Shown: positions 29,298 to 31,300 of the stretch, piece by piece
Position numbering within the stretch: position 1 is the first letter of the stretch
Layout: each line of letters opens with the position of its first letter
Notes under the pieces: generated by a model
Told to the model about the DNA's origin: nothing
Databases searched by the model: none
What the model saw: the letters and a program-made list of their open reading frames with translations, nothing else
Program-made: the position numbers and the translations under genes
Sequence record: PZ445439.1
DNA: 64,000 bases
Direction: 5' to 3' (one strand)
From: a phage

Positions 29298-29876
29298 TTA
29301 ATTACCACGGGCTGCATTAGCAACGGCGTAAGCGTACTGAACATTAGCGTCCTTAAACGTACCTTTAGAGGTATCTATTTCTGCCTTAAAGCCGCCTTTA
29401 GCCATAACATCGGCAAATTCTTTACGGAAAGCCATTGCATCAAGACCTTTCCATGATGATTTGTGCTTGGCGAATTCAAGACCAGCGTAGTTGACAGCCT
29501 TAGCTAATTTATTATCAATGACCCATTTACCGGCTTTAGGCACAAACTTCGGGCCTTTTTGTTTAGAGAACAGTTTTAAATTCCAGCGACGAAGATCACT
29601 GTCGGCTTTAACAAAAGCTGCGTCTAAGTTACTAGCAACAACATCTTCAATATGAGCAAATTTAAGTCCGTCAACTTCAATATTTAAATCGGTACGCCAG
29701 CGAAGTCCTTCCCAAGCGAAAGCTTTAAAATCGGAAGCTTTTGTAGCTAAGTATCGTTCAAGTGGAGCAGTTTTAGGGTCAAAGCCGTTTCCACCACGAT
29801 AGTTCCACTCGTCCTTATTAATGCCTTTGGCCTTTACTACAGAAGCTTCAGCAATAAATTCTTGATACGTTTTCAT
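29298..29876 (-). CDS. capsid internal protein with N-terminal capsid-targeting sequence (IPIII-like)
   Basis: N-terminus MKTYQEFIAE followed by basic Lys/Ala-rich body; 192 aa. Confidence 0.7.
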   Translation of the reverse strand: MKTYQEFIAEASVVKAKGINKDEWNYRGGNGFDPKTAPLERYLATKASDFKAFAWEGLRWRTDLNIEVDGLKFAHIEDVVASNLDAAFVKADSDLRRWNLKLFSKQKGPKFVPKAGKWVIDNKLAKAVNYAGLEFAKHKSSWKGLDAMAFRKEFADVMAKGGFKAEIDTSKGTFKDANVQYAYAVANAARGN

Positions 29877-29901
29877 TTTGTTCCTATTGATTTAATTTAT
29901 G

Positions 29902-30216
29902 TTATTCTTTAGGGAAGTTTTTAGAGTATGCATCATAAAGTTTATTACCGATGCGACGGAAGACTTTAGCTGCAAAACGGTTTTCAGGGTTTTTAATCAT
30001 GATTTGCATCATGTAAGTTCCTGCATCCGAAAGAGCTTCTTCATAGTACCCATTAATTTCTTTAAGAGTCCTACGTTTACCGCCAGGACCGTCAACAGTA
30101 ATTTTCCATTTACCTGTAGAAGTGCGGCTCGGTGGCTCAACTTGTTCAATCCAAATATAACCACCTTCAACGCGTTGGTTGGCGGATTCTGCAATAAATT
30201 CTTGATACGTTTTCAT
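29902..30216 (-). CDS. capsid internal protein (CTS-bearing)
   Basis: N-terminus MKTYQEFIAE; 104 aa; own early promoter. Confidence 0.65.
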   Translation of the reverse strand: MKTYQEFIAESANQRVEGGYIWIEQVEPPSRTSTGKWKITVDGPGGKRRTLKEINGYYEEALSDAGTYMMQIMIKNPENRFAAKVFRRIGNKLYDAYSKNFPKE

Positions 30217-30246
30217 TTTTGTTTCCTTGTTTGTTTTGATAGAGTA

Positions 30247-30276
30247 ATTATATCATATTAATACTTAAGCGTAAAC
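30247..30276 (-). promoter_or_regulatory. T4 early-type promoter (-35 GTTTAC, -10 TATAAT)
   Basis: minus strand GTTTACGCTTAAGTATTAATATGATATAAT upstream of 29902..30216. Confidence 0.5.
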
Positions 30277-30279
30277 TGT

Positions 30280-30540
30280 TTAAGCTTTACCACCAGAAAT
30301 AATTCCGAAGTTGTTAAAATCATATCCAATATCGTCAACATCTACTTTAGGGCTTGCTACAACATAAGCAATTTCACTACGTTTTGCATAGGTGTTTATT
30401 TCTCTACCATCGCCGCCTAGGAAAGAATACCCATTACGTTTTAATGAGCCAAAATCTTCGGCATCACCAACGAAAGCTTTAACTTTAAATTTGGGGCCTT
30501 TGGCATCTGCTTCAGCGATAAATTCTTGATACATTTTCAT
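30280..30540 (-). CDS. capsid internal protein (CTS-bearing), 86 aa
   Basis: N-terminus MKMYQEFIAE. Confidence 0.65.
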   Translation of the reverse strand: MKMYQEFIAEADAKGPKFKVKAFVGDAEDFGSLKRNGYSFLGGDGREINTYAKRSEIAYVVASPKVDVDDIGYDFNNFGIISGGKA

Positions 30541-30546
30541 TTTTCC

Positions 30547-30960
30547 TTAGTAAATTGATTTACCATAGTATTTGTACCAAGTAGGGCGTTGAGCAATTTT
30601 TTCATCTAAGCGAGCTTGACTTATCGCAATGGACGCTTCGGACGGGACATAATTATTACGAAATTCGACAGGGATGTCGGAAATATCCTGGACAGTCGTG
30701 TCCTTGATTTTGAAACCACGTTTCAAGCATTCAGCGATTAGCTCGATTTGACGTAAACGTAAAAATTCGAGTTTGTCGTAAAAGAATGTTACGTGACCTG
30801 TGCCTAAGATAAATGTTGGAGAGATTTTAAAATCCTTTACACGTTTACCGTTTTGAACATGTTTACGGACTGCACCAAATACGCGTGGTAATTCACGATA
30901 CTCAGCCATAAGATGTTGGTCGGTCAGTTCAGAAACAAGTGTTAAATTGATACGAGTCAT
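30547..30960 (-). CDS. denV: endonuclease V (pyrimidine dimer DNA glycosylase)
   Basis: [12 protein letters not shown]...[11 protein letters not shown]; 137 aa from ATG at 30960 with GGAGGA RBS. Confidence 0.9.
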
Positions 30961-31018
30961 AATTTCCTCCAAGTAATTGATGAATGTATAGTATCAAAGT
31001 CCTTGGAGGAAGTAAACA

Positions 31019-31300
31019 CTATTTTTCTGAAGCGCCTGAAATATATTTTTCAAGACGTTGTTTCATTAGCGAGCCGTTCTTAGCGATTTCTTCTGGTTTA
31101 TCGCACATACGCAACAAGGCTTCAAGCTTAACGATATCGCTGGTACGTTCAAATTTGCGAGTATCTATCTTACTAGCAAGTTCAGAAATACGTGCTAATA
31201 GACTTTCAGCTTCAACCAAAGCTGCACCTAGCTTAGTTGCAAATGTGTCAGTAGCTTCGTTAAGAATAGATTCTGATAAAAATTCACTATATGTTTTCAT
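31019..31300 (-). CDS. capsid internal protein (CTS-bearing)
   Basis: [11 protein letters not shown]-terminus; ATG overlaps lysozyme stop (ATATGA). Confidence 0.6.

Follow-up and report, generated by a model that had tools for sequence, protein, structure and literature searches.

The polymorphic internal-protein array around denV of a T4-like phage and the shared leader DNA of its cassettes

The 64,000-nucleotide stretch of phage sequence record PZ445439.1 analyzed here (hereafter the window) contains, between positions 29,298 and 31,300, a group of small open reading frames (ORFs) around denV whose products begin with a capsid-targeting sequence (CTS), the leader of the internal proteins (Ips) of phage T4. 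This region is the known and highly variable Ip cluster of a T4-like phage; it is a mosaic, and ordinary for the group. We consider it very probable that the array constitutes a polymorphic set of capsid-targeted, injected anti-restriction proteins whose cassettes recombine at their leaders and at repeats, including exchanges between genera. The system as such is already known, as its concept dates from 1994 and its anti-restriction role from studies published between 2007 and 2025. What is added here are junctions located in leader DNA, a module that crosses the boundary between two genera, and the site of an ORF of family phrog_2280 (w157) as a candidate third Ip locus. The six CTS-bearing proteins of the window (w192, w104, w86 and w93 in the array, w157 and w77 elsewhere; Table 1) are identical in sequence to proteins of Escherichia phage PaulHMueller (Bas45 of the BASEL collection), a published Tequatrovirus that is the sole named source for three of the six. 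No new principle is at stake; the locus is a clean instance of the known system, sequenced in full, in a reference phage that is widely distributed and whose set comprises five orphan Ips including Ip10, and w157 as an unannotated candidate.

Table 1. Features of the Ip region and of related sites in the window, with nucleotide (nt) identities to the Mosigvirus phages ST0 and phi25-307 and to T4 (slashes in leaders mark the predicted cleavage sites; aa, amino acids)
Feature	Position	Strand	Characteristics	Identity to ST0/phi25-307	Identity to T4
ipIII precursor (w192)	29298..29876	-	192 aa; leader MKTYQEFIAE/A; phrog_5341 internal virion protein, E=5e-117	ST0 absent, phi25-307 95.9%	93%
ipIII CTS-coding block	29847..29879	-	junction of T4-like and Mosigvirus-like sequence		
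Mosigvirus-like module	29850..31450	-	about 1.6 kb, about 97% identical; e 3' end, w93, denV, w86, Ip10, CTS		
Ip10 (w104)	29902..30216	-	104 aa; mature pI (isoelectric point) 9.6; phrog_3966	97.8%	absent
Early-promoter-like site	30247..30275	-	upstream of Ip10; TTTACG-17-TATAAT plus TG; 10/12 match, consensus match only		
w86	30280..30540	-	86 aa; MKMYQEFIAE/A; phrog_2667 internal head protein, E=8e-21	95-96%	absent
denV	30547..30960	-	endonuclease V inside the Ip array; Pfam Pyr_excise, E=3e-14	98%	79-80%
w93	31019..31300	-	93 aa; phrog_3499 internal head protein, E=1e-46	97.5-98%	absent
e lysozyme	31297..31785	-	3' 120-150 nt (approximately) in Mosigvirus-like block; last 150 nt (approximately) at least 90% identical to ST0	82%	92%
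Two T4 late-promoter motifs (TATAAATA)	31799..31819	-	motif search; upstream of e		
w157 cassette	35446..36036	-	36-nt direct repeat of rnaC terminator hairpin, 35446-35481 and 36001-36036		
w157	35486..35959	-	157 aa; CTS-like leader MKSYAQFLNE/AVLNE/A; phrog_2280, function not assigned		
Late-promoter motif TATAAATA	35996..36003	-	37 nt upstream of w157 start codon		
Early-promoter-like direct repeats (D3)	39670-39710, 39970-40010	-	41 nt; flank w77; 80% identity		
w77	39711..39944	-	77 aa; phrog_8111 internal virion protein, E=4e-52		
nudE				65-67%	98%
vs.8				85-86%	92.5%

All genes between 29298 and 31785 lie on the minus strand and are read in the order e-w93-denV-w86-Ip10-ipIII, followed by a vs.8 homologue. 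An earlier note on this DNA, made from the sequence alone, had listed six CTS-bearing ORFs together with denV and the lysozyme gene e, and each of them is present, the six at the coordinates given there and on the minus strand; the DenV protein carries the Pyr_excise domain and is 91% identical to that of T4. Its description of the three ORFs between 29298 and 30540 as lying upstream of denV is correct in plus-strand coordinates, but in the direction of transcription they lie downstream. Mechanical ORF calling lengthens two of the ORFs to TTG or GTG starts (31315 and 39962); the ATG starts that open the CTS fit the database annotation. The order differs, as claimed, from that of T4, whose record NC_000866 reads e-ipIII-ipII-denV-vs.8, and IpIII alone among the six proteins is of T4 type.

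The arrangement is nevertheless not unusual, since it is the RB69/Mosigvirus type of array and recurs in nearly identical form in many phages. The closest match in the phage collection, IME340, is 98.5% identical across positions 29000-32000 and has the same order; phage W143 carries the order of Bas45 with ipII added after ipIII, while the arrays of Lutter and JoYop lack Ip10. Among the Mosigvirus phages, ST0 reads e-w93-denV-w86-Ip10 followed by an ipII-like gene that replaces ipIII, phi25-307 reads e-w93-denV-w86-Ip10-ipIII-ipII with a further Ip10 paralogue, and in RB69 the families of w93 and Ip10 are represented by ORFs 127c and 124c, respectively. Near-identical arrays in IME340, W143, Lutter, JoYop and phi25-307 rule out an arrangement peculiar to this phage. 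The earlier note's observation was confirmed and its interpretation held in every part open to test, whereas the novelty that it saw in a common arrangement was overstated. The array is built from cassettes in varying combinations, and T4 simply represents one of the variants.

A module of approximately 1.6 kb within the array is common to two genera, Tequatrovirus and Mosigvirus, whose backbones are far more divergent, with only 62-86% identity in the flanks (Table 1). Scored per 50 nt, the sequence is 44% identical to ST0 as far as position 29849; identity is then 90% or higher between 29850 and about 31450, and 62-82% beyond. The same block is 90-100% identical per 50-nt window to phi25-307, which carries ipIII, so that only its right flank diverges. 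The left end of the module coincides exactly with the ipIII leader, and its right end fades within the 3' part of e.

These junctions argue for the leader DNA as a site of crossover. Identity to ST0 rises from 44% to 92% at position 29850, inside the CTS; the ST0-like alignment runs to 29845 and that of the T4-like ipIII to 29885, and the two overlap on the CTS. The Ip10 cassette that is missing in Lutter and JoYop corresponds to one exact CTS-to-CTS unit of 340 bp, and the flanking alignments in these two phages have 33 and 39 nt of the leader in common. The ipIII genes of Lutter and JoYop possess a hybrid leader (ATGAAAACGTATAAAGAATTTATC..., MKTYKEFIAE), in which an Ip10-type 5' part (Lys5, codon AAA) is joined to an ipIII body; the 5' part with Lys5 is the form present on Ip10 of IME340, W143, ST0 and phi25-307, and a crossover joining the Ip10 leader to that of ipIII would be expected to yield just such a hybrid. 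The Ip10 leader of the window has Gln5 (CAA) as in ipIII, a patch conversion, and it is because of this conversion to the ipIII type that three identical leader copies occur in this genome. At the ipI locus, the sequence exchanged relative to T4 extends over 39691-39911, with its upstream junction at the leader's 3' edge. CTS-mediated cassette exchange, which the earlier note had proposed as a consequence of the short homology blocks, is thus supported by comparative junctions and hybrid leaders. The hybrid leaders and a genus-crossing module that ends in a CTS provide unusually direct sequence evidence for leader DNA as a crossover site.

The leader itself reads MKTYQEFIAE in the proteins starting at 29876, 30216 and 39944, MKMYQEFIAE in that starting at 30540, and MKSYAQFLNE in that starting at 35959; w93 (start at 31300) likewise carries a variant of the CTS. 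The claimed conservation of the CTS at the DNA level was borne out: the 26-mer GCAATAAATTCTTGATACGTTTTCAT is present in three exact copies (29851, 30191 and 39919) and, with two mismatches, at 30515, while none was seen in 100 dinucleotide-preserving shuffles. An independent search for repeats recovered the same family of four copies (D1). Amber-suppressor analysis of the CTS of IPIII attributed targeting to residues 4 and 7 and processing to residues 8 and 10 (PMC9026906). Tyr4 and Phe7, the targeting residues, are kept in all six leaders, as are Ile or Leu at position 8 and Glu at position 10, which is followed by Ala, Ser or Thr. The six predicted processing sites accordingly read IAE/A, IAE/S, IAE/A, LSE/S, LNE/A and IAE/T, and a second LNE/A site is found at residue 15 of both w93 and w157. 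Indirect support for these leaders as true CTSs comes from another genus: in virions purified from Jiaodavirus phages, mass spectrometry revealed proteins with the leaders MKTYKEFITE, MKTYQEFLNE and MKTFKEFVKLNE (supplement to PMC13119998). A six-frame scan of the 64-kb window for the motif revealed no further ORF with the full motif, except for a chance-like match of 51 aa at 17244. Five of the six genes are located within the two hyperplastic Ip loci, e-denV-vs.8 and trna.4-57B, with w77 next to 57B and in the place of T4 ipI.

The protein w192 is IpIII, with 94.8% amino acid identity to that of T4. The w104 protein falls into the same 90% cluster as RB69ORF124c and the protein deposited as 'Ip10 [Enterobacteria phage Pol]' (CAA84455.1), is thus Ip10 itself, and is 73% identical to Ip10 of phage SP18; w93 shares a cluster with RB69ORF127c and is about 48% identical to 'ipV' of Yersinia phage PST. 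Beyond the leader, the five non-IpIII proteins share nothing with IpI, IpII or IpIII of T4. Homologues in the phage collection were found in 189 records for Ip10, 217 for w86, 496 for w93 and 511 for w157. Profile and structure searches, as suggested in the earlier note, placed w86, w93 and w77 in families of internal head or virion proteins and yielded no clue to function. Sequence searches of all six proteins against Pfam, NCBIfam and the PDB gave nothing significant, with sub-threshold CsgH and filamin signals for Ip10 only. An AlphaFold2 model of Ip10 (alignment of four sequences) had a mean predicted local distance difference test score of 55 and was unusable for a fold search; the model of w157 was helical and gave generic fold matches only. 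When the mature part of Ip10 was searched exhaustively with HMMER, seven matches were returned, which, apart from one small protein, are repeat modules of giant proteins with RTX, filamin, Big_2 or CBM domains; the similarity is weak and hints at a beta-sandwich-like fold for Ip10 without indicating a function.

By isoelectric point, the mature proteins form two groups, a basic one with IpIII, Ip10 and w157 (pI 9.5-9.65, net charge +5 to +10) and a neutral to slightly acidic one with w86, w93 and w77 (pI 5.7-6.4). Two side observations concern w86. The 90% cluster to which it belongs also holds many DenV proteins of 137 aa, one of which is its representative; the two genes lie only 7 nt apart, and this co-clustering is probably an artefact of read-through or of a fused ORF. 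The Lutter annotation splits the w86 homologue into two short ORFs that overlap, each labelled 'internal head protein' (1241-1496 of locus L005); this suggests a frameshift or a pseudogene and hence cassette decay in some lineages.

Ips join the core of the prohead through their CTS, are cut by the protease gp21 and are injected (PMC9026906). By analogy to T4 IpIII, each cassette of the array encodes a small protein whose N-terminal CTS of about ten residues would dock it on the prohead scaffolding core; the gp21 prohead protease would then cut after (I/L)-x-E, and the mature protein would remain in the head with the DNA and enter the next host by injection. Each Ip would most likely inhibit one variant of a modification-dependent (type IV, GmrSD-like) enzyme that attacks DNA containing glucosyl-hydroxymethylcytosine. 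Homologous recombination in the leader DNA and in the promoter and terminator repeats would add, delete and swap cassettes, including between Tequatrovirus and Mosigvirus. For the five non-T4 proteins, packaging, cleavage, injection and an anti-restriction role are what the published work on Ips would lead one to expect. Silas et al. 2025 found that Ip1, Ip2 and Ip3 of T4 inhibit the GmrSD systems of strains CT596, ECOR21 and ECOR17, respectively, without cross-protection, and proposed that all proteins of both Ip loci target GmrSD variants (PMC12373910). Homology to a GmrSD inhibitor was detected for w192 alone (94.8% to IpIII) and for none of the other five proteins; an anti-GmrSD role can thus be assigned to the IpIII of the window by orthology, and for the other five proteins anti-restriction activity would be the best-supported guess, in line with the proposal of Silas et al. 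2025 (PMC12373910). The Ips would then represent a counter-defence with which T-even phages are pre-loaded and which arrives with the DNA, ahead of phage gene expression.

Outside both Ip loci, and for that reason not filed by us as an established Ip gene, w157 has the e.8 homologue on one side and the rnaC/tRNA cluster on the other. The site is empty in T4, relative to which the insert spans 35481-36000; the rnaC-hairpin repeat that borders the cassette (D5, 94% identity) is present in T4 as a single copy, on which the alignments to T4 overlap. Hairpin and late-promoter motif also precede the w157 homologues of ime09 and Jiaodavirus KEN39. IME340 carries a different ORF at this position, with 187 codons, of the RB69ORF149c type and with the start MKTYAEFLTEA, and in ime09 and UFV13 the w157-type and the 187-aa ORF stand in tandem, with both proteins in phrog_2280. 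The number of cassettes at the e.8-rnaC site thus varies from none (T4) to one (Bas45, IME340) and two (ime09, UFV13). All homologues of w157 among the records listed are annotated as 'hypothetical'. In an alignment of the family, the leader is conserved while the bodies diverge, and a CTS-like leader is kept in homologues from phages of the genus Jiaodavirus, from Yersinia phage fHe-Yen9-01 and from Serratia, Erwinia, Kosakonia and Enterobacter phages. It appears plausible that w157 is an unrecognized capsid-targeted protein. In the accessible literature, two Ip loci are named and no others, and in one paper IP genes are said not to occur elsewhere; we regard the chances as even that w157 and its distant paralogue, the 187-aa protein of RB69ORF149c type, make up a third such locus of T-even-like phages and, with it, a family of capsid-targeted injected proteins, both hitherto unrecognized. 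Should w157-type proteins be packaged, they would represent new candidate inhibitors of defences against modified T-even DNA, and their targets need not be GmrSD enzymes; glycosylases acting on DNA with 5-hydroxymethylcytosine or its glucosylated form would be possible targets.

It may be argued against w157, and to a lesser degree against w93, that their leaders are not functional CTSs at all and that w157 is an ordinary, late-expressed accessory protein of the cytoplasm. Its leader has only five of the ten residues of MKTYQEFIAE, the DNA coding for it falls outside the CTS repeat family, the gene lies in neither of the two Ip loci that the literature names, and the part of the Jiaodavirus virion mass-spectrometry data in PMC13119998 that was examined contains no peptides of the w157 family. 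The phages used for mass spectrometry are, however, not among the 49 records that carry homologues, so that the absence of peptides is uninformative, and a protein with the leader MKTYQEFLNE was found in virions in the same study (PMC13119998). Moreover, w157 keeps all four residues to which targeting and processing have been attributed, followed by Ala, over the first 31 residues it is 42% identical to w93, and the leader is retained across a family in which the remainder of the protein changes; a late promoter motif stands directly upstream in both Tequatrovirus and Jiaodavirus. Taken together, we find a non-functional leader possible, though somewhat doubtful. With regard to the array as a whole, CTS proteins might mainly serve a structural purpose, as basic proteins that condense DNA in the head core, assist prohead assembly, neutralize charge or promote DNA ejection, and not be dedicated to anti-defence. 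The T4 IPs have been described as basic and as present in about 300 copies per head, and IpIII-minus and triple-IP mutants show aberrations of head assembly (PMC9026906); the basic mature forms of IpIII, Ip10 and w157 fit this description. The near-neutral pI of mature w86, w93 and w77 disfavours a purely DNA-neutralizing role for all Ips, however, and the T4 ip genes are described as non-essential, with a specific GmrSD target for each of Ip1 to Ip3 (PMC12373910). Polymorphism in presence and absence and the non-homologous bodies fit an arms race better, and we consider a mainly structural role unlikely.

The abrupt switch of identity within a single genome would also be seen if the Mosigvirus-like block were an assembly chimera from a mixed phage lysate. 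This explanation is most improbable and was rejected, because the same block recurs within Tequatrovirus flanks in the independently sequenced phages IME340, W143, UFV13, Lutter and JoYop. In addition, in 63 records a single matching stretch spans at least 80% of a 3-kb query, and the junctions fall within homologous sequence, as recombination predicts. Some points weigh against an array of recombining, injected anti-restriction proteins. The window ends at genes 16/17, and the gene for the prohead protease gp21 lies beyond it; gp21 is expected to be present in any Tequatrovirus. For the five non-T4 bodies, fold and family searches gave no hint of function. Overlaps of alignments at a shared leader are partly inevitable, since the boundaries there are ambiguous, and alignment overlap is therefore the weaker evidence for crossover; the hybrid leaders and the sharp switch between genera are the stronger. 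Finally, ip4-10, by name including Ip10, showed no reproducible inhibition of 15 GmrSD groups (PMC12373910), so that the targets of the non-T4 Ips may be enzymes other than GmrSD, or GmrSD variants outside those assayed.

Compared with the Ips of T4, the proteins of the window have identical or near-identical leaders, include an IpIII orthologue (95%), occupy the same two loci and possess small bodies that are unrelated to each other. They differ in lacking IpI and IpII, in having five other bodies and six CTS genes as opposed to three in T4, and in the position of denV, which lies inside the array and not after it. With the polymorphic Ip loci of T-even phages, the array shares interchangeable ORFs, a common leader and early-promoter-like flanking repeats, and no difference in kind is apparent. 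Repoila et al. reportedly described polymorphic Ip cassettes with a common leader and recombination at conserved elements in 1994 (EMBO J 13:4181), and are said to have named Ip4 to Ip10, with more than 30 variants following later. The mapping of w86, w93 and w77 onto the 1994 numbers is incomplete and derives from database names, such as that of the 'ipV' related to w93. The segment e-w93-denV-w86-Ip10 resembles the array of RB69 (RB69ORF127c, denV, RB69ORF124c) and of ST0 (gp255-259), with 95-98% nt identity; unlike ST0, in which the last cassette is ipII-like, the window has a T4-type ipIII and Tequatrovirus-like flanks. The w157 cassette resembles the PeSL cassettes, which are mobile regulatory elements of T4-type phages (Arbiol et al. 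2010, PMC2839356), in its hairpin-repeat borders and its own promoter; the promoter of w157 is late (TATAAATA), in contrast to the early promoter of PeSLs, and the likeness is thus one of mechanism only. Elements associated with Ips have themselves been called analogues, not homologues, of PeSLs (PMC2839356).

The expression signals of the region are only compatible with early plus late expression and do not constitute evidence for it, as the promoter and terminator scan gave matches no commoner than in shuffled sequence. The start of w93 overlaps the stop codon of e (ATGA), and the start codon of w86 is found 7 nt past the stop of denV; the pair of TATAAATA motifs before e could drive late read-through into the array. 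A promoter-like site (40009-39981) precedes w77, and the D3 repeat element that flanks w77 also precedes Ip10. These 41-nt repeats fit the early-promoter-based elements at the two Ip loci that PMC2839356 credits to Repoila et al. 1994.

Several further observations concern related or neighbouring genes. In phi25-307, the additional Ip10 paralogue is a CTS ORF of 109 aa (MKTYQEFITEV...; phrog_3966; 595-924 of locus L006) adjoining vs.8, so that Ip10 paralogues occur inside one array. The denV gene behaves as a repair-gene passenger in the Ip cassette block, and bands of identity distinguish at least three classes of denV alleles among T4-like phages. Eight tRNA genes lie between 36350 and 37706, one of which, with a CAT anticodon, corresponds to tRNA-Ile in the T4 annotation; within this cluster, a GIY-YIG homing endonuclease of 221 aa (36430-37095) agrees in length and position with T4 segB. 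Between the tRNA cluster and trna.3, three ORFs (37793-38981) are without equivalent in annotated T4, where trna.2 alone occupies this place. A 31-nt direct repeat (38578-39063; 94% identity, spacing 455) brackets an ORF of 126 aa (38601-38981; phrog_4301, a family of unknown function), and this segment looks like another repeat-bounded accessory cassette.

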